From: Escherichia phage VpaE1_ev78
DNA: 64,000 bases
Sequence record: LR597663
Reading direction: 5' to 3' (one strand)
The position numbers and the translations under genes were made by a program. Shown piece by piece: positions 2,717 through 32,374 of the stretch. The notes under the pieces are model-generated. The model made no database searches. It was not told the DNA's origin and saw only the letters and a list, made by a program, of their open reading frames with translations. Within the stretch, counting starts at the first letter, position 1; every line of letters begins with the position of its first letter.

Positions 2717-2794
2717 TCTCTGTTTAGCTCAGCTTGGTAGAGCGTTCCGTTTGGGGCGGTAAGGCCGGAGGTTCAAGTCCTCCAACAGAGACCA
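2717..2794 (+). tRNA. tRNA-Pro (anticodon TGG)
   Basis: Hand-folded cloverleaf: 7-bp acceptor CTCTGTT/AACAGAG, D-loop AGCTTGGTAG, T-arm GGAGG-TTCAAGT-CCTCC, anticodon loop TTTGGGG, CCA encoded. Confidence 0.7.
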
Positions 2795-2801
2795 AATTAA
2801 T

Positions 2802-2879
2802 GTTCCAGTAGACAAAATGGTAAAGTCACCACTCTTTCAAAGTGGATATCTGAGGGTTCAAATCCCTTCTGGAACGCCA
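2802..2879 (+). tRNA. tRNA-Glu (anticodon TTC)
   Basis: Acceptor GTTCCAG/CTGGAAC, anticodon arm CCACT-CTTTCAA-AGTGG, T-loop TTCAAAT, CCA encoded. Confidence 0.7.
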
Positions 2880-2885
2880 GTTTTG

Positions 2886-2910
2886 ACAGAAGACCAATTG
2901 CAGCAAACTT
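2886..2910 (+). repeat. tRNA-spacer motif ACAGAAGACC-N5-CAGCAA, copy 1; followed about 60 nt later by GGTCTGG
   Basis: Motif recurs at about 3053, 3449 and 3535, partial copy near 6168. Confidence 0.6.
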
Positions 2911-2970
2911 AATCTTATTCATCTGAAGGTAAATCGGACAAAGAAGAGATTTGGTCTGGTCATTAAGAAT

Positions 2971-3047
2971 TGCGGGTATAGAGAAAGGGCGTCTCACATG
3001 TCTCATTAGCATGGTATCGGCAGGTTCGACTCCTGCACCCGCCTCCA
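2971..3047 (+). tRNA. tRNA with CAT anticodon (Met / initiator / Ile-lysidine type undetermined)
   Basis: T-arm GCAGG-TTCGACT-CCTGC, acceptor with 1:72 mismatch, anticodon stem built on palindromic CATG; position 37 appears to be T, which is atypical. Confidence 0.5.
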
Positions 3048-3052
3048 AATTT

Positions 3053-3077
3053 ACAGAAGACCGTTTACAGCAATATT
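3053..3077 (+). repeat. tRNA-spacer motif ACAGAAGACC-N5-CAGCAA, copy 2
   Basis: TTACAGAAGACCGTTTACAGCAA; GGTCTGG about 58 nt downstream. Confidence 0.6.
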
Positions 3078-3131
3078 TATTAAATTTTTAGCGGAAAAAA
3101 TTGAAAGATACGGTCTGGTAACACTAAACAT

Positions 3132-3208
3132 GGTTAGGAAGCACATAAGGTATGTGCGGTCGCCTGTTAAGCGAATGGCACAGGGTTCGAATCCCTGACT
3201 AACCGCCA
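3132..3208 (+). tRNA. tRNA-Asn (anticodon GTT)
   Basis: Acceptor GGTTAGG/ACTAACC, anticodon loop CTGTTAA, T-arm CAGGG-TTCGAAT-CCCTG, CCA encoded. Confidence 0.7.
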
Positions 3209-3217
3209 AATTTAAAT

Positions 3218-3305
3218 GTGTCGTTATCCCGTAGATGGTAGCGGTGGGGACTGTAAATCCCTTGTCATTGAGACTCGGTAGGTTCGACTCCTACACGGCA
3301 CACCA
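3218..3305 (+). tRNA. tRNA-Tyr (anticodon GTA), long variable arm
   Basis: 88 nt; acceptor GTGTCGT/ACGGCAC, anticodon arm GGGGA-CTGTAAA-TCCCT, T-loop TTCGACT. Confidence 0.7.
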
Positions 3306-3310
3306 ATAAA

Positions 3311-3388
3311 GGTTATGTAGTTTAATTTGGTTAAAATACTCCCCTGTCACGGGAGATGATGAGGGTTCAAATCCCTTCGTAACCGCCA
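3311..3388 (+). tRNA. tRNA-Asp (anticodon GTC)
   Basis: Acceptor GGTTATG/CGTAACC, anticodon arm CTCCC-CTGTCAC-GGGAG, T-loop TTCAAAT. Confidence 0.7.
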
Positions 3389-3448
3389 ATTTTGAGAGGG
3401 CTATTTAGCCCCTCCCTTAAAGAGTTCTTACGAGTATTCTTTAAAGGA

Positions 3449-3472
3449 GCAGAAGACCAAATACAGCAAGTT
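3449..3472 (+). repeat. tRNA-spacer motif, copy 3 (GCAGAAGACCAAATACAGCAA)
   Basis: Same motif family; GGTCTGG about 67 nt downstream. Confidence 0.55.
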
Positions 3473-3534
3473 ATTTAAAATTTCAAGCCAATTTAATTTT
3501 GAAAAATTTAAAACTTGGTCTGGCTCAACAAATT

Positions 3535-3560
3535 TACAGAAGACCGTTTACAGCAAAACT
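3535..3560 (+). repeat. tRNA-spacer motif, copy 4 (TTACAGAAGACCGTTTACAGCAA)
   Basis: Identical core to copy 2. Confidence 0.6.
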
Positions 3561-3591
3561 TAACAATCTATTTCTCCGGTAAAGAAAAGGC

Positions 3592-3626
3592 GAAGGTTCG
3601 ATTCCTTCACTCGGCAGATGTCGAGT
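3592..3626 (+). ncRNA. tRNA-like minihelix: canonical T-arm (GAAGG-TTCGATT-CCTTC) directly followed by a 7-bp acceptor-like hairpin (ACTCGGC-AGAT-GTCGAGT); no D or anticodon arm found
   Basis: T-loop consensus present but no complementary 5-prime acceptor strand within 120 nt upstream; complementary strand lies immediately downstream. Confidence 0.4.
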
Positions 3627-3668
3627 TGGTGTAATGGTAGTACTTAAGATGATAAACAACGGTCTGGT

Positions 3669-3688
3669 AATTATCTTTGTAGATAAGT
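3669..3688 (+). repeat. hairpin element TTATCT-TTGT-AGATAA preceded by GGTCTGG
   Basis: Second copy with inverted loop (TTATCT-ACAA-AGATAA) at about 3795-3810; the two flank roughly 105 nt. Confidence 0.55.
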
Positions 3689-3792
3689 TATTAAGCTTAC
3701 CTGTGAGTATGCGACCACAAAGGGTGAAAGGGTAAATTCTAGATTTAAACCCAAAAAGGCACATCGCTACAGACCTTAAGCAAGTCTGGGTA

Positions 3793-3812
3793 GCTTATCT
3801 ACAAAGATAATT
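3793..3812 (+). repeat. hairpin element TTATCT-ACAA-AGATAA, second copy, preceded by GTCTGGG
   Basis: Reverse complement of the copy at 3669-3688. Confidence 0.55.
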
Positions 3813-3816
3813 TAAT

Positions 3817-3892
3817 GGAAGTGTAGCAGAATGGTGATGCGGCAGACTTTTAATCTGACAGGCGATGGGTTCGAATCCCTCCACTTCTACCA
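3817..3892 (+). tRNA. tRNA-Lys (anticodon TTT)
   Basis: Acceptor GGAAGTG/CACTTCT, anticodon loop CTTTTAA, T-loop TTCGAAT; two outer T-stem mismatches. Confidence 0.6.
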
Positions 3893-3896
3893 ATAT

Positions 3897-3973
3897 GGTT
3901 CAGTCGCAGATAAGGTAATGCAAGGGTCTCATAAGCCCTATGAATGTGGGTTCGATTCCCATCTGAACCTCCA
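3897..3973 (+). tRNA. tRNA-Met (anticodon CAT)
   Basis: Acceptor GGTTCAG/CTGAACC, anticodon arm AGGGT-CTCATAA-GCCCT, T-loop TTCGATT, CCA encoded. Confidence 0.65.
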
Positions 3974-3974
3974 A

Positions 3975-4050
3975 GCTGGTATAGTTAAGAAGGTTATAAC
4001 ACTCCCCTGATAAGGGAACATCGGTGGTTCGATTCCACCTACCAGTACCA
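3975..4050 (+). tRNA. tRNA-Ile (anticodon GAT)
   Basis: Acceptor GCTGGTA/TACCAGT, anticodon loop CTGATAA, T-arm GGTGG-TTCGATT-CCACC. Confidence 0.65.
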
Positions 4051-4065
4051 ATTTCAATAAAGTTG

Positions 4066-4094
4066 TTGACATTGAGATGTGACTACTTTATAGT
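4066..4094 (+). promoter_or_regulatory. sigma70-like promoter (TTGACA, 17 nt, TATAGT)
   Basis: Near-consensus hexamers with 17-nt spacer inside the tRNA array. Confidence 0.6.
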
Positions 4095-4298
4095 AACCTT
4101 AGTTTTCGTTGCGTAGCGTCTATTTTGCAAATTTAAAATAAATGCAAACGACAATGTTTTTCTGGCAGTAGCTTGATAGGCTAAACACCAGTGAGGTCTT
4201 CCAATCCCTCATCAAAGAATTTGGCGTACTCGCCCACGGTATGATTAATAAGGTGGGCATCTTTAAGGGCTTTCTAAGAGAGTCTTTAAAGATAATTA

Positions 4299-4380
4299 CG
4301 GGGCGTATCTCAGCGGTCTTCTAAACCGCCGTTAACCGAGTAAGTGGAGTATGCGGGTTCGAGTCCTGCCGCCTCGACCA
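4299..4380 (+). tRNA. atypical tRNA-like gene (82 nt): acceptor and T-arm canonical, anticodon-like hairpin with loop CTTCTAA (TCT, Arg-like), no recognisable D-arm, 23-nt extra region
   Basis: Acceptor CGGGGCG/CGCCTCG, T-arm GCGGG-TTCGAGT-CCTGC, CCA encoded; the only strong internal hairpin is GCGGT-CTTCTAA-ACCGC right after positions 8-9. Confidence 0.45.
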
Positions 4381-4394
4381 ATTTTGGAGAAATC

Positions 4395-4742
4395 ATGAAA
4401 ACTTGTATTAGGTGCAAACTTAGCAAGGATGAAAATGATTTCTACATGAAAGATGGTAGGAGAACTCATTCATACTGTAAAAAGTGTGTTAATGAGCAAA
4501 CCATAGAAAGACAAAGAGCACTTAAACTCTCAGCTATTGAGTACAAAGGTGGGGTTTGTCACGATTGTGGTAAAAAGTATCATCCAGCAGTGTATGACTT
4601 CCATCATTTGAATCCTTCAGAGAAAGATTTTAACATTGGTCATAGGAAAAGCCTTAAGTTCTCTCAAGAACTAAAAGATGAACTTGACAAATGTGTTTTG
4701 CTATGTTCAAATTGCCATAGGGTAAGACATGCAAAGTATTAG
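4395..4742 (+). CDS. HNH homing endonuclease
   Basis: Motif DFHHLNPSEKDF...CVLLCSNCHRVRH; ORF-track start lies inside the upstream tRNA, so trimmed to ATG at 4395 (RBS GGAGA). Confidence 0.8.
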   Translation: MKTCIRCKLSKDENDFYMKDGRRTHSYCKKCVNEQTIERQRALKLSAIEYKGGVCHDCGKKYHPAVYDFHHLNPSEKDFNIGHRKSLKFSQELKDELDKCVLLCSNCHRVRHAKY

Positions 4743-4885
4743 TTAGCAGATTACTTAGACGACCTAAGCGGGTCTTCCTGTAGGGAGGTGGTCTGTATCT
4801 CATGTTTTCCAGAACATGTAAATAATCTGAGAAGAAGCTTGACAGTGTTGAGATAACAGGGTAAGCTTCGAATTATAGTTTTAAT

Positions 4886-4956
4886 AGGGGTGAGCTATGG
4901 CAGCAATAGAGTCTCCAAAATTCTTGATTAGAGTTCGAATCTCTACACCCCTGCCA
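4886..4956 (+). tRNA. tRNA-Trp (anticodon CCA), short with reduced D-arm
   Basis: Acceptor AGGGGTG/CACCCCT, anticodon arm AGAGT-CTCCAAA-ATTCT, T-arm TAGAG-TTCGAAT-CTCTA; about 71 nt. Confidence 0.55.
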
Positions 4957-4970
4957 GAACAGGTGCTTGT

Positions 4971-5375
4971 ATGAAACTTTGTAGAAAATGTTCTCAAGAA
5001 AAGCCTTTAAGCTGCTTTCATAAAAGAGGTAATGGCTATCAGTCTGCTTGCAAAGATTGTAAAGCTAAGTACTCAGCAAAGAGATACAAAGAAGACCCTA
5101 CTTATAAAGCAAAAAGAAAAGTTAGGGCAAAATATGACAAAAAGAGGAACAGAGAGTTCCTTAGTAGATATAAAAAGTTTTGCAAATGCAGAATATGTGG
5201 CGAATCTGAGCCAGTAGCTTTGGATTTTCATCACTTAGACCCTAAAGAGAAAGATTTTGCTCCAAGCAATCTTAAAACTTACTCTAGGGGCACTATTAAG
5301 CGTGAAGTCCGTAAGTGTGTTGTGCTTTGTTCAAACTGTCATAGGAAAGTTCATGAAGGACTGTTAAGTATTTAA
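4971..5375 (+). CDS. HNH homing endonuclease (paralogue of 4395..4742)
   Basis: Motif DFHHLDPKEKDF...CVVLCSNCHRKVH; RBS AGGTG. Confidence 0.8.
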   Translation: MKLCRKCSQEKPLSCFHKRGNGYQSACKDCKAKYSAKRYKEDPTYKAKRKVRAKYDKKRNREFLSRYKKFCKCRICGESEPVALDFHHLDPKEKDFAPSNLKTYSRGTIKREVRKCVVLCSNCHRKVHEGLLSI

Positions 5376-5388
5376 CAGTCTTATTAGG

Positions 5389-5476
5389 GGTAGGTAGCGG
5401 CTAATGGTAGCCAAACTGTCTTGAAAACAGTTGCCACTGTAGAGATACGGTGAGGGTTCGACTCCTTTACTTACCG
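5389..5476 (+). tRNA. tRNA-Ser (anticodon TGA), long variable arm
   Basis: Acceptor GGTAGGT/ACTTACC, anticodon arm ACTGT-CTTGAAA-ACAGT, T-loop TTCGACT; CCA not encoded. Confidence 0.65.
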
Positions 5477-5633
5477 CCTAATAAGATTTAAAGCCAAGCT
5501 TCATTCGGATGTTGCTTTGGTATCCCGCGTGTATTGTTGTACACACTGATAAAGCACCTAGTAGGTGTCACGGAGAAGAGATAATATCAAGCTCTCCAAA
5601 GGTTCTAGTCACCGGATTAAACAAGACTATGCA

Positions 5634-5654
5634 AAGACCTTTTTAGGTCTTTTT
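5634..5654 (+). terminator. possible intrinsic terminator or processing hairpin (AAGACC-TTTTTA-GGTCTT plus TTTT)
   Basis: Short hairpin followed by T-run inside the tRNA array. Confidence 0.3.
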
Positions 5655-5733
5655 AGAGGGCTTCTAAGGTTATTACAGCTTGTTGTGGAACCTTGTTGCT
5701 TAGGTTCTTAGAAGTTCTCTAAAAAGATTTAAT

Positions 5734-5811
5734 GGGAGATTGACGGTAATTGGTAAACCTATCTCGCTTAGAACGAGATGTTTGAGGGTTCGAATCCCTT
5801 GTCTCCTACCA
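5734..5811 (+). tRNA. tRNA with TAG anticodon (nominally Leu) but type-I short variable arm
   Basis: Acceptor GGGAGAT/GTCTCCT, anticodon arm TCTCG-CTTAGAA-CGAGA, T-arm GAGGG-TTCGAAT-CCCTT; variable region about 5 nt. Confidence 0.55.
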
Positions 5812-5818
5812 AATTAAT

Positions 5819-5894
5819 GCAGGTGTAGCAAAATGGTTATGCGGCTGACTCTTAATCAGTAAGACGATGGGTTCAATTCCCTCCACCTGTACCA
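5819..5894 (+). tRNA. tRNA-Lys (anticodon CTT)
   Basis: Acceptor GCAGGTG/CACCTGT, anticodon loop CTCTTAA, T-loop TTCAATT; similar to the 3817 tRNA. Confidence 0.6.
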
Positions 5895-5899
5895 AAAAT

Positions 5900-5975
5900 G
5901 GGGTCATAGTTTATATGGTTAAAATTCGAGTTTTGCAAACTTGGGAACTGAGTTCAATTCTCAGTGACTCCACCA
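5900..5975 (+). tRNA. tRNA-Ala (anticodon TGC)
   Basis: Acceptor GGGGTCA/TGACTCC, anticodon arm CGAGT-TTTGCAA-ACTTG, T-arm CTGAG-TTCAATT-CTCAG. Confidence 0.65.
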
Positions 5976-5981
5976 ATTAGT

Positions 5982-6056
5982 GCATCCATAGTTTAAACGG
6001 GAAAATTACAGTCTTCCAAACTGAGGTTGAGGGTTCGATTCCCTCTGGATGCTCCA
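5982..6056 (+). tRNA. tRNA-Gly (anticodon TCC)
   Basis: Acceptor GCATCCA/TGGATGC, anticodon loop CTTCCAA, T-arm GAGGG-TTCGATT-CCCTC. Confidence 0.65.
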
Positions 6057-6063
6057 AATTAAT

Positions 6064-6139
6064 GCTCCTATCGTATAATTGGCTATTACGGTTGCCTTGT
6101 AAGTAACTTATCAGGGTTCGAATCCTTGTGGGAGCACCA
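6064..6139 (+). tRNA. tRNA-Thr (anticodon TGT)
   Basis: Acceptor GCTCCTA/TGGGAGC, anticodon arm GTTGC-CTTGTAA-GTAAC, T-loop TTCGAAT. Confidence 0.65.
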
Positions 6140-6236
6140 ATTTAGAGGTCAAGTGAAAGACCGCTTTGAGTCAACTGAAGACCGTAACAAATTCCACGGA
6201 GTTGAGTTAGCGGCACAACTCCAGACCTCTTCTCAC

Positions 6237-6311
6237 ACTCGCTTAGTTTATATGGTAAAACACCACCCTTACAAGATGAAGAAAAAGGTTCAAGTCCTTT
6301 AGTGAGTACCA
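6237..6311 (+). tRNA. tRNA, probably Val (anticodon TAC); weak anticodon stem
   Basis: Acceptor ACTCGCT/AGTGAGT, T-arm AAAGG-TTCAAGT-CCTTT, anticodon loop CTTACAA with two stem mismatches. Confidence 0.45.
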
Positions 6312-6312
6312 T

Positions 6313-6390
6313 GTTCCAGTATCCCAATTGGCAGAGGATGCAAGCTCAAACCTTGTACTAGTGATGGTTCGAATCCATCTTGGAACACCA
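6313..6390 (+). tRNA. tRNA with CAA anticodon (nominally Leu) but type-I short variable arm
   Basis: Acceptor GTTCCAG/TTGGAAC, anticodon arm GCAAG-CTCAAAC-CTTGT, T-arm GATGG-TTCGAAT-CCATC. Confidence 0.5.
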
Positions 6391-6395
6391 ATTTT

Positions 6396-6471
6396 GCAGG
6401 ATTAGTTCAAATGGATAGAGCAACAGTCTACGAAGCTGTTAATAGGGGTTCAAATCCCTTATCCTGCGCCA
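6396..6471 (+). tRNA. tRNA-Arg (anticodon ACG)
   Basis: Acceptor GCAGGAT/ATCCTGC, anticodon arm ACAGT-CTACGAA-GCTGT, T-loop TTCAAAT. Confidence 0.65.
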
Positions 6472-6490
6472 ATTTAAAGAGGCTATTTAG

Positions 6491-7048
6491 ATGAGATATT
6501 TGAAGTATGCTTCATGGATTTTCTTAGCTTTGTTAGAACCATTTGCAGCAATCTTAGCAGTTATCTTAGCACCTTTTGTAGTTCCATTCTACAGTGAGAA
6601 GAAAGGACACTTACCTTTCGGGTTCAGATGGATGGAGACATATGACAACCCAATTGATGGTGATGAAGGTCACGTTAAAAGATGGGCTAATATTAGATGG
6701 ATTGGTAAACTAGGTGTCTACATGCAAAGAGTCGGATGGCTCTGGAGAAACAAAGCTTATAACTTCTCTTACCATGTGTTAGGAAGAGATGTAAAAGATG
6801 TTACTAAGTGGAAAGGTAATATCAACGTAAGTTCTAACCCTGAAGATAATCAGACAGGTTATCTCCTAATGTGGAACAGTAATGCTTGGGGATTATTCGC
6901 TTTTACCCCATCAATTAAAATCTTTGGTAAACAGTTTTACTGGAGAATTTATATTGGGTGGAAGCTAAAAAGTGTTGTCCCAGAAGAAAGAGCATTCTCA
7001 AGGGAAAGAGTTATGTTGGCATTCTTTATTCATCCACTAAGAAAGTAA
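6491..7048 (+). CDS. Trp-rich membrane protein of unknown function (185 aa) inside the tRNA array
   Basis: RBS AAAGAGG; hydrophobic N-terminal segment WIFLALLEPFAAILAVILAPFVVPF; many Trp residues. Confidence 0.65.
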   Translation: MRYLKYASWIFLALLEPFAAILAVILAPFVVPFYSEKKGHLPFGFRWMETYDNPIDGDEGHVKRWANIRWIGKLGVYMQRVGWLWRNKAYNFSYHVLGRDVKDVTKWKGNINVSSNPEDNQTGYLLMWNSNAWGLFAFTPSIKIFGKQFYWRIYIGWKLKSVVPEERAFSRERVMLAFFIHPLRK

Positions 7049-7056
7049 AGATTTAA

Positions 7057-7132
7057 AGGGGATTAGTTTACAAGGTTAAAACCTCGGTCTTTGAAATCGA
7101 AGAAGTTGGTTCAATTCCAACATCCCCCGCCA
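7057..7132 (+). tRNA. tRNA-Gln (anticodon TTG)
   Basis: Acceptor AGGGGAT/ATCCCCC with 1:72 mismatch, anticodon loop CTTTGAA, T-arm GTTGG-TTCAATT-CCAAC. Confidence 0.6.
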
Positions 7133-7134
7133 AT

Positions 7135-7213
7135 GCTCCATTACTCCAATTGGCAGAGAGGCCAGACTTAAAATCTGTGTTATGTATCGGTTCGAATCCG
7201 ATATGGAGTACCA
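7135..7213 (+). tRNA. tRNA with TAA anticodon (nominally Leu) but type-I variable arm (about 7 nt)
   Basis: Acceptor GCTCCAT/ATGGAGT, anticodon loop CTTAAAA, T-arm ATCGG-TTCGAAT-CCGAT. Confidence 0.5.
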
Positions 7214-7218
7214 AATTT

Positions 7219-7294
7219 AGCGGTATAGCATAACTGGCAATGCAGCAGCCTCTGAAGCTGTCCTATTAAGGTTCAAATCCTTATGCCGCTGCCA
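7219..7294 (+). tRNA. tRNA-Gln (anticodon CTG)
   Basis: Acceptor AGCGGTA/TGCCGCT, anticodon arm GCAGC-CTCTGAA-GCTGT, T-arm TAAGG-TTCAAAT-CCTTA. Confidence 0.6.
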
Positions 7295-7325
7295 CTTCTA
7301 AGGATTCTTACGAGAGTCCTTAAAT

Positions 7326-7401
7326 GTGGCCTTATCATAAATGGTAATGACCCATGCTGTGAACATGGTCTATACGGGTTCAAATCCCGTAGGTCACCCC
7401 A
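7326..7401 (+). tRNA. tRNA-His (anticodon GTG)
   Basis: Acceptor GTGGCCT/AGGTCAC, perfect anticodon arm CCATG-CTGTGAA-CATGG, T-arm ACGGG-TTCAAAT-CCCGT. Confidence 0.7.
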
Positions 7402-7406
7402 ATTTA

Positions 7407-7481
7407 TAGTCCAAGTAGCTTATATGGTTAAAGCGCGTGTCTGAAAAACATGAGAAGAGGGTTCAAATCCCACTGGACTAC
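7407..7481 (+). tRNA. tRNA-Phe (anticodon GAA)
   Basis: Acceptor TAGTCCA/TGGACTA, anticodon arm CGTGT-CTGAAAA-ACATG, T-loop TTCAAAT; CCA not fully encoded. Confidence 0.6.
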
Positions 7482-7499
7482 CAATTTCAAAGGTGCTTA

Positions 7500-8234
7500 A
7501 TGAAAGAGATGACAGAACAAGGTAAGGAGATTTTTAATCTCTTAAAAACCGGTAAAGGGTTCTCTAACCCACTTATTACTGGTGCAGCAGTTCTCGGTGG
7601 AACCGTAGCTGCTTCTACATCACTTGTAAGCTCTATTAGTTCTGTAACAGACCCTACAATGAAGGAGAAACTTGTTGCTGCTGGACTTACAACAGTCCTT
7701 CTAAACAGCTTTACAACAAGCCTTACAAGCACTACAGCAACTACTAAAACTCTGACAGACTACGGTCAAAAGTCTATTGATGAGTTTTCATCACGTATGC
7801 AGGTAGCAAAGGGGTATTCCAATGTTATGGGTGCAGCAGGAGAACAAGTTGGTTGTACACCATTCAGTGGTATCATGGGTGTTGCTACAGAGTATGGTCA
7901 AAAAGCTATTGACATGATGAACAGTACACTAGATAGTGTTAATGGTGTGTTAAGTGACTTGCAAGATGCTATTGATAAGGGTCTTGATACTGTTTCTGAT
8001 TTAGCTAATCAGGCTGTTAGTAAGATTAATGAAGGTATTTCAAAGATTACAGCTTATGCAGATGAAGTTGTGCAGATGATTGAAGAAGAAGCTGCCCTTA
8101 TTGCAGAGTACCTTAAAACGAATATCAATGGGTTCTTAGCAGGTATCTTACCAGACTGGTTTGATGATGCCTGTAAAACTGGTGTGATTGACACTATTGC
8201 AACACCAGAAATGAAGAGCGCATTACAGAAATAA
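7500..8234 (+). CDS. hypothetical Ser/Thr/Ala-rich protein (244 aa) inside the tRNA array
   Basis: ORF-track start overlaps tRNA-Phe; trimmed to in-frame ATG at 7500; low-complexity T/S/A/G-rich middle. Confidence 0.5.
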   Translation: MKEMTEQGKEIFNLLKTGKGFSNPLITGAAVLGGTVAASTSLVSSISSVTDPTMKEKLVAAGLTTVLLNSFTTSLTSTTATTKTLTDYGQKSIDEFSSRMQVAKGYSNVMGAAGEQVGCTPFSGIMGVATEYGQKAIDMMNSTLDSVNGVLSDLQDAIDKGLDTVSDLANQAVSKINEGISKITAYADEVVQMIEEEAALIAEYLKTNINGFLAGILPDWFDDACKTGVIDTIATPEMKSALQK

Positions 8235-8236
8235 AT

Positions 8237-8329
8237 GGAAGATTAACCCTAAAAGGTAAGGGAGCAGTTTGCTAAACTGCCAGTAGCTGAGAAATCGGTG
8301 TACCAGTTCAAGTCTGGTATCTTCCTCCA
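8237..8329 (+). tRNA. tRNA-Ser (anticodon GCT), long variable arm
   Basis: 93 nt; acceptor GGAAGAT/ATCTTCC, anticodon arm GCAGT-TTGCTAA-ACTGC, T-arm ACCAG-TTCAAGT-CTGGT; starts 3 nt after upstream stop. Confidence 0.7.
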
Positions 8330-8333
8330 ATTT

Positions 8334-8409
8334 GAATCCGTGACAGAAATGGCTATGTGCCTGTCTGCAAAACAGGTTTATAAGGGTTCGAGTCCCTTCG
8401 GATTCTCCA
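8334..8409 (+). tRNA. tRNA-Cys (anticodon GCA)
   Basis: Acceptor GAATCCG/CGGATTC, anticodon arm CCTGT-CTGCAAA-ACAGG, T-arm AAGGG-TTCGAGT-CCCTT. Confidence 0.7.
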
Positions 8410-8853: not shown

Positions 8854-10455
8854 ATGGACTTAAATGCTGTTAAGCAGAAGCGAGTGGAAGATGTTAGGAA
8901 AGTCCTAGCTGGAGAGTTGGGGCTTTCTGATGAAGTAAAAGAAATTATCAAATCATTCGGTAAAGACCCCTCTAAATTCCTTCCAACTCAAATTCTGACT
9001 TTATTAAGATACACACCAGACCAAGTTCGCCTTATCTTTAAATTGATGACTGATAAGAACTATGTAGCCCCTCAACCGGGTTCTCAAGAGGTCTTTTTAA
9101 ATACTAATGCTGACTTGGTTCTTTATGGTGGTGCTGCTGGTGCTGGTAAAACTGCTGCATTGTTAATGGACTCTTTAAGATTTATTGAAGACCCTAACTA
9201 TAATGCTGTATATTTCCGTCGAAATACAACACAGTTACAAGGTGGTTTATGGCCTGCTGCAAAGAAACTATTTGGTAAGTTTGGTGGGATTCCTCACGAG
9301 CAGAAGATGACTATCACATTCCCTTCTGGGGCAACTATCAAGTTTACCTACCTAGAACTTGAAAAGCACGCTGAAGGTCATCAGGGTATTGAATACTCAG
9401 CTATTTACTTTGACGAAGGTACACACTTCTCTGCTTCACAGATTTCATACCTACAAACCCGTCTACGTTCTGGTGCTGAAGGCGATTCATACATGAAGAT
9501 TTCCATGAACCCAGACAGAGACCATTTTATTTATGATTGGGTAGAACCATTCTTAGATGAAGAAGGTTATCCAGACCCTGAAAAGTGTGGTCGTATTCGT
9601 TGGTATGTAATGAATGATGGTGTGATGGTTTCTGATTGGGAGAGAGACAAGATTCTTGAAATGTTCCCTCTTGAGATTCCTCAAACATACACCTTTATCT
9701 CTGGTACGATTGATGATAACCCAATCCTTGACTTCTTAGAGCCTAAGTACCGTGGTAAGTTGGAAAACAACACCCCTGTAAACGTTGCAAGACTTCGTTT
9801 CGGTAACTGGAAGGCTCGTGCAGAAGGTTCAAACTATTGGCAAAGACAATGGTGTGAAATTGTTGATTCACTCCCAGAAGATGTATTTGATGTTAGAGCA
9901 TGGGACTTAGCAGCAACTTTACCATCTGAGATTAACCCTAATCCAGACTGGACAGCAGGTGTTAAGATGGGTAAATCTAAAAAAGACGGTTGCTATTATA
10001 TCATTGATGTAGTAAGATTTAGAGATAGACCCTCTGGAGTCGAAACACAAATTAATTTGACTGCTGAAAGTGACGGTAAGCGAACTGGTATTTTTATCCC
10101 TCAAGACCCAGGCGCTGCTGGTAAATCCTACGCAACATCCCTCATCAGGAAACTTGCCGAGAAAGGCTATCGTGCAAGAGCTAAACCAACAAATAAAGAT
10201 AAAGTTACCCGATTTGCGGGGTTTTCTGCTGCTTCTGAAGCTGGACTTGTAAAAGTCTTGAGAGGTAGTTGGAACGAAGCTTACTTCCAAGAACTTGAAG
10301 GCTTTTGTGGTGATGGTAAAACTAAAGATGACCAAGTGGATGCTACCAGTGATGCTTTCAACAGTCTTAACGAAGTTAAATTATTCAAGCCACCATCAAT
10401 GGGTGCTCACACAGACTTAGTGAGAGGAAACCCATATGAGGGGCTTAGACGTTGA
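8854..10455 (+). CDS. terminase large subunit
   Basis: Walker A LYGGAAGAGKTAAL, Walker B-like IYFDEGTH, C-terminal nuclease-like region; start trimmed to ATG with GGAGG RBS. Confidence 0.85.
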   Translation: MDLNAVKQKRVEDVRKVLAGELGLSDEVKEIIKSFGKDPSKFLPTQILTLLRYTPDQVRLIFKLMTDKNYVAPQPGSQEVFLNTNADLVLYGGAAGAGKTAALLMDSLRFIEDPNYNAVYFRRNTTQLQGGLWPAAKKLFGKFGGIPHEQKMTITFPSGATIKFTYLELEKHAEGHQGIEYSAIYFDEGTHFSASQISYLQTRLRSGAEGDSYMKISMNPDRDHFIYDWVEPFLDEEGYPDPEKCGRIRWYVMNDGVMVSDWERDKILEMFPLEIPQTYTFISGTIDDNPILDFLEPKYRGKLENNTPVNVARLRFGNWKARAEGSNYWQRQWCEIVDSLPEDVFDVRAWDLAATLPSEINPNPDWTAGVKMGKSKKDGCYYIIDVVRFRDRPSGVETQINLTAESDGKRTGIFIPQDPGAAGKSYATSLIRKLAEKGYRARAKPTNKDKVTRFAGFSAASEAGLVKVLRGSWNEAYFQELEGFCGDGKTKDDQVDATSDAFNSLNEVKLFKPPSMGAHTDLVRGNPYEGLRR

Positions 10456-20111: not shown

Positions 20112-28109
<7,998 letters not shown>

Positions 28110-28111
28110 TA

Positions 28112-29299
28112 ATGGCGGTAGGTGAAATTCAAATTAGTGCCTTGCCTCAAGCAGCCTTACCAATTGACCTTAGTGATATCTTCCATCTTAAGCAGGGTAT
28201 TGAGGATAAGAGATGTACTCTTGAGCAATTACTTGCTCCACACTCAAGCCTAAGAAATAACCCTCATGGTGTTACTAAAACACAAATTGGTTTAGATAAC
28301 GTTATCAATGCTCTTCAGTTAGTTGCTGCAAATAACTTATCAGACGTTACTAATGTAGCTCAGGCAAGAGCAAATCTACAGATTATGTCTTCAGAAGAGG
28401 TTAATAATCTTGTTCAACAGCATATTCAGGACAAGAGCAACCCACATAATACAACTAAGGCACAGGTAGGGTTGAGTAATGTTCAGAACTGGACAACATC
28501 TAACCTTTATAATGAAGATGCAGATAAGTATGCTACAGCAAGAGCAGTAAATAACTTGTACAAGGCTGTTCAGGCTTCCTATCCAGTAGGTACTATCCAT
28601 CTTTCCATGAACTCTGCAAACCCTTCTACATATTTAATTTGTGGAGGAACTTGGGAGTTAGTTTCAAAAGGTAGAGCATTGGTTGGTTATGACTCTGACA
28701 CAAGACCAGCAGGTTCTGTATTTGGTGCTTCAACTGTCACTTTGTCAGTTAATAACATGCCTCAACACTCTCACTCTGTGTCTCTTAGTGGTGGTGGTCA
28801 TACTCATAATGCAACGGTGTCAATTTCAACTTTTGATTATGGAACTAAGACTACCAATTCTTTTGACTATGGAACAAAGACTACTAACACAACAGGTAAC
28901 CACAACCATGTTGGTAGTGGGTCAACAAGTACTGCTGGTGCTCACAACCACAGATTGACACATGAAGCAGGCGGTGGCCTATCGGAAAGACCTGCAATGG
29001 TTTGGTCTACAAGAAATGACCAATCGTGGTACTCAGCAGATGCTGTCTGTGAAGTCGCTGGTGCACATACCCACTCTTTCAGTGTTACCACCAACACAAC
29101 TGGTAACCACAACCATACAGTAGGTATTGGTGCTCACAGCCACACAGTTGGTATTGGTTCGCATACACATAATGGTACTGTAACAGTTTCTTCTTCTGAA
29201 CATACGCATAGCGGGAACACTAATAGTGTTGGTGGAGGACAAGCTTTCAACATTGAGCAGCCATCCTTCGTACTGTATGTATGGCAGAGAACAGCTTAA
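28112..29299 (+). CDS. tail fibre protein with C-terminal reiterated HxH motifs
   Basis: Repeats GGHTHNATVS, FDYGTKTTN x2, GNHNHVG, GAHNHRL, GAHTHSF, GNHNHTVGIGAHSHTVGIGSHTHNG; C-terminus ends in the motif W..RTA, shared with the next fibre. Confidence 0.7.
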   Translation: MAVGEIQISALPQAALPIDLSDIFHLKQGIEDKRCTLEQLLAPHSSLRNNPHGVTKTQIGLDNVINALQLVAANNLSDVTNVAQARANLQIMSSEEVNNLVQQHIQDKSNPHNTTKAQVGLSNVQNWTTSNLYNEDADKYATARAVNNLYKAVQASYPVGTIHLSMNSANPSTYLICGGTWELVSKGRALVGYDSDTRPAGSVFGASTVTLSVNNMPQHSHSVSLSGGGHTHNATVSISTFDYGTKTTNSFDYGTKTTNTTGNHNHVGSGSTSTAGAHNHRLTHEAGGGLSERPAMVWSTRNDQSWYSADAVCEVAGAHTHSFSVTTNTTGNHNHTVGIGAHSHTVGIGSHTHNGTVTVSSSEHTHSGNTNSVGGGQAFNIEQPSFVLYVWQRTA

Positions 29300-29308
29300 T
29301 TTCTTTAC

Positions 29309-29330
29309 AGGGGCTTTATAGCCCCTTTTA
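29309..29330 (+). terminator. weak intrinsic terminator (AGGGGCT-TTATA-AGCCCCT plus TTTT)
   Basis: Hairpin between the two fibre genes. Confidence 0.45.
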
Positions 29331-29345
29331 AGAGGAAAATTTATA

Positions 29346-31694
29346 ATGGCAGACTACAAATTGAGTGAATTAAACTCAATCGACACAATCCGTTCAGATG
29401 ACCTTCTTCATGTCAGAGTTAAAAAGAGACCTGAAATGCTGGGTGATGAAGACCGTCGAATGACCTATCAAGACTTCTTAGCATCTTTTAAGCTTGAGAG
29501 ATTTGTTCAGATTGCTGGTAGCACTATGACAGGTGACTTAGGGATTGTTAAGTTACTTTATGGTGGTAAGGTAGTATTTAACCCAACAGGCTCTTCTGAG
29601 ATTAATATTGGGGATGTTTTAAAGACTTTTAAAATCAACGCAAATGGCCTTAAACTGACTATTGCAGACACTTCAAGGTCGGCAACTGTTTATCATACTC
29701 TGAATAAGCCAAGCCCTAATGAACTTGGGATGAGAACTAATGAAGAGAATGATGCAAGGTATGCAAGACTAGCTATCACAAACACATTCTCTGGAACTCA
29801 AAATATTCAAGGTGATGCTAACTTACTTCGCCTTAGAAACCAAAATGCAAATAATGCACAATATATCGAAGGTGTAAACCTAGATGGCTCGGCTAGATGG
29901 TGGGTTGGTATTGGTAGTAATGGCTCTGACGAAGTAAAGCTGTACAATAACAAATACAACTCAGCCTTGACTGTTGCAAGTAATGTCTCTGTTAATAAGT
30001 CTTTAGCAATCACTGGTCAAGTTCAACCTTCTGACTTCTCTAACTTAGATGCTAGATACTTTACTCAGACAGTAGCTAATCAGAGATTTGCACAGTTAGC
30101 TGCGAATAACAATTTCACTGGCACTAACACGTTTAGCAGAAACCTACGTATTATCAGTGACGGTGCTGCTTTAAGGTTGAAAAATGCAACAACTAGCTCA
30201 CTATACATTCAGGGTGTTGACTCTCAGAACACTAACAGGTGGTATGTAGGGAACGGGGATAACACAGCCTCTGTGCTGCTAAACAACTATGTACACGGTT
30301 CAAATATCAGGCTTGATAATGGCTATATCTCAGTCAACCAGAACTTCAGAATCACTGGTCAAGTTCAACCTTCGGATTGGACTAATATTGACTCTAGATA
30401 TATTCCGGCAGCAACTTTGAGTAACCTACCTAAGCTTAATGTTGCTAACACATTTGTGAATGTGCAAACTATTGTATCAAATAATGAAGGCGTAGTATTA
30501 AGAAACTTAACACAGGGGCAGCCACAATATATCCGTGGTGTTGATACCCAGAATGTATCTAGTTGGTGGGTAGGTGTGGGTGGCACAAATTCTACTGATG
30601 TGGCATTAAACAACAGCTACTCTGGGACTCAAATTACTCTTATGCCTTCAGCGATTAAGGCTAATAAGAACCTAACCATTACTGGTCAAGTTCAACCTTC
30701 TGATTGGTCTAACTTAGATGCTAGATATTTTGTTAAAACTCAGTTATTAAACCAATCCTTAATGACTGTTTCTGTAGATAACCTTGAAAACCCTTCAGGT
30801 TTTAATCTTGGATATTCAGGTTTTGTCAGAAACAATCAGGTTGCTAGTGGACTGAGAGAATTGGCAATTCATGTTGCTCACTCTAATAAGACTGCTGCAC
30901 ATGCAAGAGGAATCTCTTTTGTGTATGGCTCAAATGGACTGGCAACATTTACCTATGCCTATGACAAAAATGGTGACTATGCCGGAGAGGCACAGCTTTA
31001 CACAACTGATTTTAAACCAACCCCTTCAGATATCGGTGCATACACTAAAGCTGAAACTGACCAGAAGATTGCACAGGCAGTAAGTGACTCTACAGACCTT
31101 AATAAAATCTATCCAGTAGGTATTGTAACGTGGTTTAACAGTAATGTTGACCCTAATACAGCGTTGCCTGGGTTAACTTGGACGTACCTTAACAATGGTG
31201 TTGGTAGAACTATCAGGATTGCAGCAGCAAACGGTTCAGATGTTGCTACAACAGGTGGTTCAGATTCTGTGACGCTAGCTGTTGGTAACTTACCATCACA
31301 CACCCATAGTTTCTCTGCTACCACTTCATCTTTTGATTATGGTACGAAGAACACTAATAGTACTGGTGCACATACCCATTCAGTTAGTGGTACTGCTGCA
31401 TCTGCTGGGCAACACGCACACAGAATTTCACAGGGTGACAACGCTAACGTTTCATCAGGTAGAGTCGCATCTTCAAACTCTGCTCAGACCCATGTTGGTT
31501 GGACTGAAAATGATGGTGTTCACACCCACTCAGTTAGTGGTACTGCTGCATCTGCTGGTGGACATGCTCACTCTGTAGGTATTGGTGCTCATAGCCACAC
31601 AGTTAGTGGTAACACTGGTGGTACAGGTTCTGGTTCAGCATTTAGTGTTACTAACCAGTTCTACAAGTTAATGGCTTGGGTAAGAACTGCTTAA
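29346..31694 (+). CDS. large tail fibre protein with three internal repeat modules and C-terminal HxH region
   Basis: Three copies of ITGQVQPSD(F/W)(S/T)N(L/I)D(A/S)RY module; C-terminal FDYGTKNTN, GAHTHSV, GQHAHR, GGHAHSVGIGAHSHTV; ends with the motif W.RTA. Confidence 0.75.
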   Translation: MADYKLSELNSIDTIRSDDLLHVRVKKRPEMLGDEDRRMTYQDFLASFKLERFVQIAGSTMTGDLGIVKLLYGGKVVFNPTGSSEINIGDVLKTFKINANGLKLTIADTSRSATVYHTLNKPSPNELGMRTNEENDARYARLAITNTFSGTQNIQGDANLLRLRNQNANNAQYIEGVNLDGSARWWVGIGSNGSDEVKLYNNKYNSALTVASNVSVNKSLAITGQVQPSDFSNLDARYFTQTVANQRFAQLAANNNFTGTNTFSRNLRIISDGAALRLKNATTSSLYIQGVDSQNTNRWYVGNGDNTASVLLNNYVHGSNIRLDNGYISVNQNFRITGQVQPSDWTNIDSRYIPAATLSNLPKLNVANTFVNVQTIVSNNEGVVLRNLTQGQPQYIRGVDTQNVSSWWVGVGGTNSTDVALNNSYSGTQITLMPSAIKANKNLTITGQVQPSDWSNLDARYFVKTQLLNQSLMTVSVDNLENPSGFNLGYSGFVRNNQVASGLRELAIHVAHSNKTAAHARGISFVYGSNGLATFTYAYDKNGDYAGEAQLYTTDFKPTPSDIGAYTKAETDQKIAQAVSDSTDLNKIYPVGIVTWFNSNVDPNTALPGLTWTYLNNGVGRTIRIAAANGSDVATTGGSDSVTLAVGNLPSHTHSFSATTSSFDYGTKNTNSTGAHTHSVSGTAASAGQHAHRISQGDNANVSSGRVASSNSAQTHVGWTENDGVHTHSVSGTAASAGGHAHSVGIGAHSHTVSGNTGGTGSGSAFSVTNQFYKLMAWVRTA
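30011..30730 (+). repeat. three direct repeats of about 50 nt (ACTGGTCAAGTTCAACCTTC...) spaced roughly 330 bp apart inside the fibre gene
   Basis: Near-identical nucleotide segments at about 30011, 30353 and 30680. Confidence 0.7.
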
Positions 31695-31773: not shown

Positions 31774-31968
31774 ATGCCTACAATCCTAGCAATTCTTCTA
31801 AAAAATCTAGGTAGCTTCTTCTGGAAACTCATTTTATCCCTTCTAAGTGAATACATGATTGAGAAAGTGTTCTTTAAGCTTGCAAGATACCTTGCGAGTA
31901 AAACAGACACGCCTATTGATGATGAGTTCGTAGATAACTTAGAAAAAGCTTTTAAGGGGGAGAAATAA
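31774..31968 (+). CDS. small membrane protein (holin-like candidate)
   Basis: 64 aa with hydrophobic N-terminal segment and charged C-terminus; follows tail fibres. Confidence 0.4.
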   Translation: MPTILAILLKNLGSFFWKLILSLLSEYMIEKVFFKLARYLASKTDTPIDDEFVDNLEKAFKGEK

Positions 31969-32340
31969 ATGAAGTGGCTAGAGGAAGCTTTTAAAAATAA
32001 TATTGGTGCAATTGTAGTTGGTATTTTTAGTGTTATTGGGATGTATACCACTATGCAAGTTTCAAGTGGTAAGCAAGAAGTGTCTGTCACAACAAAGTTA
32101 CAGCAGCTAGATAATTATTCCAAAAGTAACTATTCAGCTATTCGTGATTTACAGTCTGACATGAGACTGATTCAGCTAGGGATGGAGAACCAGAAAGTTC
32201 AGTTAGAGAATGTTAAGGGTGAAAACGCAAAACTTACCAAAACTCTTGATAAATTCTCTGACAGTGTGAACAATCTGGCTCAATCAGTATCAGCCCTCCA
32301 AGCTATTACTGAAAAGAACACAAAGAATACTGAAAAATAA
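31969..32340 (+). CDS. membrane-anchored coiled-coil protein (123 aa)
   Basis: N-terminal TM IGAIVVGIFSVIGMY followed by coiled coil; last gene before convergent terminator. Confidence 0.45.
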   Translation: MKWLEEAFKNNIGAIVVGIFSVIGMYTTMQVSSGKQEVSVTTKLQQLDNYSKSNYSAIRDLQSDMRLIQLGMENQKVQLENVKGENAKLTKTLDKFSDSVNNLAQSVSALQAITEKNTKNTEK

Positions 32341-32347
32341 AGTTTAA

Positions 32348-32374
32348 GGCTCCTTTTTACGGGAGCCTTTTTTG
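32348..32374. terminator. intrinsic terminator at convergence point (GGCTCC-TTTTTA-CGGGAGCC plus TTTTTT)
   Basis: GC hairpin and T-run between plus structural operon and minus-strand thyA. Confidence 0.7.

Follow-up and report, generated by a model that had tools for sequence, protein, structure and literature searches.

Short and long tail fiber genes of a Felix O1-like coliphage have T4 gp37-type tips and vary by exchange of cassettes

The Felix O1 genome paper of 2010 noted that the tail fibers resemble T4 gp37 at the C terminus, and Felix O1 gp77 was detected in virions by mass spectrometry (PMC3185647). The same similarity was reported for phage VpaE1 in 2015 (PMC4690856), and cryo-electron microscopy (cryo-EM) of phage Bas63 in 2025 showed a collar-needle-head architecture with His-x-His (HxH) motifs in both the short and the long tail fiber (STF and LTF) (PMC12609058). 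In T4, the gp37 needle holds seven histidine-bound irons, the histidines are essential for function, and the collar domain D10 is built from residues 811 to 881 plus 1010 to 1026 (PMC6957217). Here, we analyzed the gene pair at positions 28112 to 31694 of a 64,000-nucleotide stretch of Escherichia phage VpaE1_ev78 (accession no. LR597663; the window). The pair comprises the short and long tail fiber genes of a Felix O1-like (Felixounavirus) Escherichia coli myophage. A gp37-type tip in such fibers is already known, and to that extent our work is routine annotation: two host-range genes of such a coliphage are assigned, and the needle known for the genus is found in both. Taken as a whole, we consider it highly probable that the locus is an STF/LTF pair with gp37-type tips, shaft units of fixed number, and variation driven by cassettes.

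The DNA of the window was 97.8% identical to that of Felixounavirus phages LF82P3 and XTG1. It matched 239 phage records, nearly all from Escherichia or Salmonella Felix O1-like phages. The genes follow the order 489-amino-acid (aa) wedge protein (Baseplate_J type), 285-aa wedge protein, 100-aa platform protein, STF, and LTF, with the sizes and order of Felix O1 ORF73 to ORF77, of Bas63 gp23 to gp27, and of the genes annotated in XTG1. Genes at the same positions in XTG1 and Felix O1 are annotated as tail fiber (by synteny with STF). Because gene order, sizes, and the platform protein match, we equate STF and LTF with Felix O1 gp76 and gp77, VpaE1 gp74 and gp75, and Bas63 gp26 and gp27, respectively. 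LTF had the same sequence (100% identity) as the protein recorded as "Phage tail fiber protein" for Escherichia phage VpaE1_ev78. The platform protein, encoded directly upstream of the STF gene, is by homology where the long fiber attaches to the baseplate.

A preliminary description of this DNA had proposed that both open reading frames (ORFs) are tail fibers with HxH ladders of the kind that coordinates metal ions in the receptor-binding tip of T4 gp37, and the database comparison bore this out by homology of both ladders to the iron-binding T4 needle. In phmmer searches, aa 146 to 367 of STF matched the T4 gp37 tip (PDB 2XGF) with an E value of 1.6e-26 and aa 647 to 761 of LTF with an E value of 2e-17. 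The significant matches extended over collar, needle, and head. STF contains nine HxH motifs (aa 219, 230, 264, 278, 319, 333, 342, 351, and 364), compared with 1.6 +/- 1.1 (maximum, 6) in 2000 composition-preserving shuffles, and LTF contains six (aa 652, 676, 690, 726, 740, and 749), compared with 0.4 +/- 0.7 (maximum, 4). The iron-binding HxH positions of T4 were matched by HxH in seven of seven cases in STF and in six of seven in LTF; the extra STF motifs (aa 219 to 221 and 364 to 366) fall where the needle meets the collar, one per strand. At the sequence level, the HxH blocks flank the variable head, and the C terminus aligns with T4 gp37 ..NYIVRLA and weakly with gp10 ..YRWIR; the AlphaFold2 models described below are too uncertain to show a chain reversal in three dimensions. 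A family profile aligned end to end with 2XGF (residues 18 to 242), including the C-terminal R-x-A, with an E value that is inflated by the T4-like sequences in the profile. A PDB search with the C-terminal 34 aa alone gave no significant match. A collar construct with the needle excised matched gp10, its C-terminal stretch aligning with the gp10 end (..QPYITVYRWIR) only below significance. The tips of STF and LTF are paralogous (36% identity; E value of 2e-25). The homology and the motif positions are direct observations, as is the conservation described below.

Several smaller motifs had also been pointed out in the tips. The strings GAHTHS, GNHNHT, GAHSHTV, and GGHAHSV were all present in the proteins. 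Repeats of FDYGTK(T/N)TN had been claimed for both fibers: FDYGTKTTN does occur twice in tandem in STF (aa 241 and 251), but FDYGTKNTN occurs only once in LTF (aa 663). The shared W..RTA ending is likewise real (STF ends in ..YVWQRTA and LTF in ..MAWVRTA), but it is a family-wide feature, by homology the last strand that would return into the collar domain, not peculiar to these genes and no special link between them. Relatives end in [YM]x[WV]xR[TVIL][AS] and T4-type tips in ..IAFNYIVRLA. All of the 120 closest LTF relatives had six HxH motifs and the MAWVRTA end. Among 69 STF relatives, the needle histidines were 71 to 100% conserved, R393 was invariant, and W391 was at least 90% conserved. 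The most variable STF stretch was the head at the hairpin turn (aa 281 to 315), where DNA identity fell to 38 to 48% against VpaE1, ULIM9, and ev035. The number of HxH motifs also differed between STF relatives (6, 7, 8, 9, 10, or 11), nine being the common Felixounavirus state in the relatives sampled. A parity rule, by which HxH rungs are added pairwise, was ruled out by these counts together with unequal numbers on the descending and ascending strands. In STF variants with seven motifs (P0027, P0029, and P0035), the two head-proximal descending HxH motifs are replaced by other sequence, which in P0029 and P0035 includes an extra YDYGNR/NYGNK unit resembling FDYGTK. The needle positions of the head-proximal motifs thus seem able to hold different sequence. 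A literature search on "His box" gave no match.

Fiber variation in these phages arises by allelic exchange of cassettes (the tip head and the shaft units R1 and R2) between related phages and not by changes in unit copy number. Among the 120 LTF relatives, we counted 6 allele types for R1 (aa 143 to 222), 15 for R2 (aa 263 to 342), and 8 for the head (aa 693 to 725), against 1 each for the N terminus and the collar. The allele types occur in many combinations, and several pairs of common types show all four possible combinations. R1 and R2 alleles are discrete, 35 to 40% identical to one another, and lie between near-invariant linkers; the conserved flanks include an ITGQVQPSD linker just downstream of each. 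The DNA of R1 was 43 to 55% identical to that of five relatives, with flanks at 90 to 100%.

The head block shows the same mosaicism within a single gene. Over most of 29532 to 31270, the DNA of window LTF was 100% identical to that of LF82P3, and from there up to 31391 it was still 90 to 100% identical. Over 31392 to 31570, identity was 35 to 56% to LF82P3 and XTG1 and 93 to 100% to ULIM9 and VpaE1_ev035. The left breakpoint is within 31369 to 31394 (between His-boxes 2 and 3), and the right one is at about 31571, just after His-box 5. The head is flanked by His-box pairs (..GAHTHSVSGTAASAGQHAH and ..GVHTHSVSGTAASAGGHAH) encoded by a 69-nucleotide (nt) direct repeat, 80% identical between its copies (31353 to 31421 and 31503 to 31571, + strand). 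Against LF82P3 and XTG1, the left breakpoint falls in or next to this repeat and the right one at the end of its second copy. The head-cassette breakpoints, which were observed directly, are thus in or next to conserved GxHxH His-box coding DNA. A fast MAFFT alignment of the 120 LTFs, in which the head was misaligned, had made the head allele look near-unique (best identity, 77%); this was rejected at the codon level, where identity to ULIM9 and VpaE1_ev035 was 92 to 97%. Because the allele is not unique, a possible positive-selection signal in the LTF head was dropped. In three Felixounavirus LTF relatives, the head cassette was nearly identical to the T4 gp37 head (YIEAWNGTGVGGN..SNTNAAGN), a sign that Ounavirinae and T-even phages have exchanged cassettes.

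For phage engineers, the cassette map marks the blocks through which fiber specificity can be exchanged while the conserved scaffold stays intact: the head (31392 to 31570), R1 (about 29772 to 30011), and R2 (about 30132 to 30371). R1 and R2 match the receptor-binding head in polymorphism. The shaft variability was called unexpected and left unexplained in the Bas63 study (PMC12609058). R1 and R2 reassort as freely as the head, whereas R3, the N terminus, and the collar are monomorphic. Although we think this rather unlikely, R1 and R2 could add a second determinant of specificity on the side of the fiber, by contacting glycans or by being sensed by host defenses, rather than serve as inert spacers.

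The three direct repeats at a spacing of about 330 bp that had been noted in the larger gene are present, at 29993, 30335, and 30662 (spacing of 342 and 327 bp). They are tandem gp37_trimer shaft domains: Pfam PF20744 matched LTF in three stretches (total E value of 1.9e-78), and a hidden Markov model of the unit also found three domains. A repeat core of about 70 nt was 70 to 84% identical, whole units were 52 to 54% identical in DNA and 41 to 43% in protein, and the longest exact word shared by unit pairs was 20 to 24 nt (ACTGGTCAAGTTCAACCTTC). The units are ancient and diverged. R2 resembled the pyramid domain of T7 gp17 (PDB 4A0T; E value of 1.1e-6 over aa 271 to 344). Five beta-helix domains were counted in the Bas63 LTF (PMC12609058), and aa 57 to 120 and 456 to 560 of LTF may be the other two.

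The repeats had been put forward as a substrate for recombination that alters host range. Unequal crossing-over between them would give two, three, four, or more units, and the exact core shared by each repeat pair could in principle allow rare illegitimate or short-homology recombination. Duplication of a small domain in the gp37 tip is also reported to widen the host range of T4 (Tetart 1996, as cited in PMC6669636). The comparison of relatives leaves such a mechanism very unlikely here. Exactly three units at the same positions were found in all 120 relatives, so the copy-number part of that claim failed, and the units share only about half of their DNA positions. LTF length did differ among the relatives (781 to 796 aa, with outliers of 764 and 855 aa), but the tip head accounts for the 12-aa gap between length classes, and the differences in both kinds of outlier lie outside the units; the two 855-aa proteins carry an insertion of 61 aa in the domain at aa 463 to 560. 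Ounavirinae of other genera (Sf17, SFPB, and Moogle) were colinear over 78 to 92% of the LTF query. The Bas63 study, in which the LTFs of all Felixounavirus members were modeled with AlphaFold 3, also reported no variation in repeat number (PMC12609058). The Bas63 fiber is docked along the sheath, which plausibly fixes fiber length.

Two further explanations concern the tips themselves. The 395-aa protein could be a baseplate pin or lever of the T4 gp10/gp11 type instead of a receptor-binding fiber, and its collar does resemble gp10. The resemblance is confined to aa 144 to 220, however, and only Gp10_C matched (Pfam profile positions 3 to 119; gp10 residues of about 440 to 520). The N-terminal domains of gp10 went undetected, the first 140 aa of STF being unrelated to gp10, so STF lacks the full gp10 architecture. 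The following part (aa 219 to 367) aligned with the gp37 needle and head (E value of 1.6e-26), its hairpin-turn segment is hypervariable as a receptor contact would be, and the Bas63 ortholog was seen as a 430-A fiber with a gp37-like tip (PMC12609058). A pin or lever is therefore highly improbable. We give next to no credence to the idea that the HxH ladders are not primarily structural, being either a compositional accident of a tail rich in Gly, Ser, Thr, and His or an iron bait ("Ferrojan horse"). The HxH region is compositionally biased, and iron-carrying fibers are discussed for marine phages (PMC11705849). The HxH counts are nonetheless far above those of shuffles of the same composition, and individual histidines are kept, one to one with the T4 ligands, in relatives that are only 40% identical overall. 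Changing the T4 iron-binding residues H929 and H931 to alanine abolished plaque formation (PMC6957217), and the receptors known for the genus are lipopolysaccharide (LPS) sugars and not siderophore transporters (PMC4690856, PMC8594841).

Some results count against a gp37-type fiber pair. AlphaFold2 (AF2) models, folded as single chains only, had mean confidence (predicted local distance difference test [pLDDT]) of 66 and 62, with values of 40 to 65 for needle and head (below 50 for the STF head) and confident prediction for the collar alone. Foldseek searches of the PDB with these models gave no significant match beyond gp10 and gp11 and did not retrieve 2XGF. The two collar-proximal HxH motifs of STF have no counterpart in T4 gp37, the fiber densities of Bas63 were too poor for side-chain modeling and no fiber chain was deposited in the PDB (PMC12609058), and the needle geometry proposed for STF and LTF is based on sequence homology only. 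Because the needle exists only as an intertwined trimer, the single-chain models are uninformative about it and neither support nor contradict it.

The T4 structure, the Bas63 cryo-EM, and the biology of related phages suggest how the fibers would work, including their trimeric state, metal occupancy, and receptor. By homology, STF and LTF would each be homotrimeric, with their N termini docked on the baseplate and LTF docked at the platform protein. Each chain would form most of the collar (Gp10_C), run down the needle to the small hypervariable head, return up the needle, and complete the collar with the ..W.RTA strand. In the trimer, the HxH motifs of three chains would face the needle axis, each motif providing one octahedral six-histidine metal site (iron in T4), so that nine predicted sites in STF and six in LTF would staple the six-stranded needle. 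By analogy with Felix O1, VpaE1, and Bas63, the receptor that the head would touch is most likely the LPS core (PMC4690856, PMC8594841). Host range would vary as homologous recombination between related phages swaps the head, R1, and R2 cassettes. The positions of these parts are listed in Table 1.

Table 1. Positions of the tail fiber genes, their parts, and adjacent features in the window
Feature	Position	Strand	Evidence
LTF platform protein, 100 aa, Bas63 gp25 ortholog	27807..28109	+	phmmer vs PDB 9NDY_S "LTF platform protein (gp025)", E 1.6e-65 over 100/100 aa; phrog_4141
STF gene, 395 aa	28112..29299	+	phrog_2097 tail fiber, E 1.4e-136
STF N-terminal region, predicted baseplate-binding, and helical region, aa 1-139	28112..28528	+	Identity 0.67-0.86 among 69 relatives; AF2: short strands, then helices
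STF collar, first segment, aa 140-218, Gp10_C fold	28529..28765	+	
STF needle, descending strand, aa 219-280; 4 HxH, 2 FDYGTKTTN	28766..28951	+	Motif count; 2XGF alignment
STF head, putative receptor-contacting tip, aa 281-316, hypervariable	28952..29059	+	Identity to relatives 0.25-0.28; entropy 2.5-2.9 bits; aligns with T4 gp37 head segment
STF needle, ascending strand, aa 317-367; 5 HxH	29060..29212	+	Motif count; 2XGF alignment; conservation
STF C-terminal segment, aa 368-395, ..QAFNIEQPSFVLYVWQRTA, predicted to complete collar	29213..29296	+	Identity 0.80; aligns with T4 gp37 C terminus
Intergenic hairpin GGGGCT-TTAT-AGCCCC, then TTTT, in 46-nt STF-LTF gap	29310..29329	+	RNA fold of 29297-29348: -16.5 kcal/mol, z -3.2
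LTF gene, 782 aa	29346..31694	+	phrog_4277 tail fiber, 1279 bits, full length
LTF N-terminal region, predicted baseplate-binding, aa 1-121, monomorphic	29346..29708	+	Identity 0.93-0.99 in 120 relatives; single allele type
LTF shaft unit R1, aa 122-232, gp37_trimer domain; variable cassette aa 143-222	29709..30041	+	PF20744; 6 allele types
LTF shaft unit R2, aa 233-346; variable cassette aa 263-342	30042..30383	+	15 allele types; PDB 4A0T match
LTF shaft unit R3, aa 347-455, conserved	30384..30710	+	Identity 0.85-0.95; 3 allele types, 110/120 in one
LTF knob-like domain, aa 456-560, between shaft and collar	30711..31025	+	Weak gp37_C PF12604 match, E 0.008, below Pfam cutoff; 4 allele types
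LTF collar, first segment, aa 561-650	31026..31295	+	36% identical to STF collar and needle, E 2e-25; Gp10_C E 5.6e-4, below Pfam cutoff; single allele type
LTF needle, descending strand, aa 651-692; 3 HxH, 1 FDYGTKNTN	31296..31421	+	Motif count; 2XGF alignment
LTF head, hypervariable, putative receptor-binding cassette, aa 693-725	31422..31520	+	8 allele types of 31-45 aa
LTF needle, ascending strand, aa 726-753; 3 HxH	31521..31604	+	Motif count; 2XGF alignment
LTF C-terminal segment, aa 754-782, ..SAFSVTNQFYKLMAWVRTA, predicted to complete collar	31605..31691	+	100% conserved in 120 relatives, all MAWVRTA

The baseplate-binding role suggested for aa 1 to 139 of STF follows the cryo-EM description of Bas63 (PMC12609058). 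This region contains the motif NPHxxTKxQ(I/V)GLxNVxN twice, at aa 50 to 66 (28259 to 28309) and aa 110 to 126 (28439 to 28489). The two copies are probably the counterparts of the "triple alpha-helix and turn" elements seen in the Bas63 fibers.

The intergenic hairpin between the fiber genes sits just before the Shine-Dalgarno sequence of LTF and could be a partial terminator or an mRNA-stabilizing element. Rfam gave no RNA families in the fiber region, and no credible opposite-strand gene overlapped it. Two small ORFs lie 3' of the LTF gene (31774 to 32369), one of 64 aa and one of 123 aa with an N-terminal hydrophobic segment. Both were assigned to PHROG families of unknown function and otherwise gave only a weak match to an Rz-like spanin (E value of 0.009); neither matched a chaperone family in a screen limited to these two ORFs. 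A bidirectional terminator-like hairpin (32346 to 32369) follows, after which the coding strand turns minus (td and frd). Elsewhere in the window, ARAGORN found 26 tRNA genes clustered at 2718 to 8409 (+ strand), including His-GTG; the genome paper of Felix O1 lists 22 tRNA genes. The GenBank record of XTG1 (KT184316.1) carries a "cos site" inside the LTF gene (8871 to 8880), repeats labeled "StbAB binding," and, within the tail module, a hypothetical protein called "transposon-related," all of which look like over-annotation.

Compared with the T4 gp37 tip (2XGF; collar D10 and D11 with needle and head), the tips described here share the homologous collar, needle, and head, GxHxH at the iron-ligand positions, FDYGTK, a small variable head at the predicted hairpin turn, and a C-terminal aromatic-x-x-R-x-A strand that would run back to the collar. 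They differ in the number of HxH motifs (seven in T4 against nine in STF, with two extra near the collar, and six in LTF), and the heads are unrelated. T4 builds its fiber as a chain of gp34, gp35, gp36, and gp37, whereas here single polypeptides would attach directly to the baseplate. T4 also has the chaperones gp38 and gp57A, and none was identified here in the two ORFs screened after LTF. The collar has the fold of T4 gp10, gp11, and gp12 (PF21939, Gp10_C), with detectable similarity (YPVGTI.. and W..L..G..LVG) and a C-terminal strand of the same kind. Unlike gp10, which has no metal-binding needle, the fibers have a long putative needle-head hairpin inserted between the collar body and the last strand. 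The shaft recalls the repeats of T4 gp34 and gp37 (PF20744) and the T7 gp17 pyramid (4A0T), in that all three 110-aa LTF units match PF20744 and R2 matches T7 gp17. It differs from them in having three tandem copies of fixed number, of which R1 and R2 are allelic hypervariable cassettes.

The closest counterparts are the fiber pairs of Bas63, Felix O1, and VpaE1, with the same genes, position, and architecture. Bas63 gp25 and the platform protein are all but identical, and LTF has six HxH motifs like that of Bas63. The Bas63 STF, in contrast, was reported with seven HxH motifs (PMC12609058), against nine here and in most sampled relatives. Window LTF also departs from these pairs by combining an LF82P3/XTG1-type shaft with a ULIM9/VpaE1_ev035-type head. 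T-even adhesins reportedly shuffle at the His boxes of gp37 and the glycine-rich motifs of gp38 (Tetart 1996 and 1998 and Trojet 2011, as cited in PMC12032242 and PMC6669636). Modular shuffling at conserved motifs has long been proposed for these adhesins (Tetart 1998, as cited in PMC12032242). The fibers studied here resemble them in having hypervariable segments between short conserved coding motifs where breakpoints fall and differ in that the shuffling occurs in Ounavirinae and affects shaft domains too.

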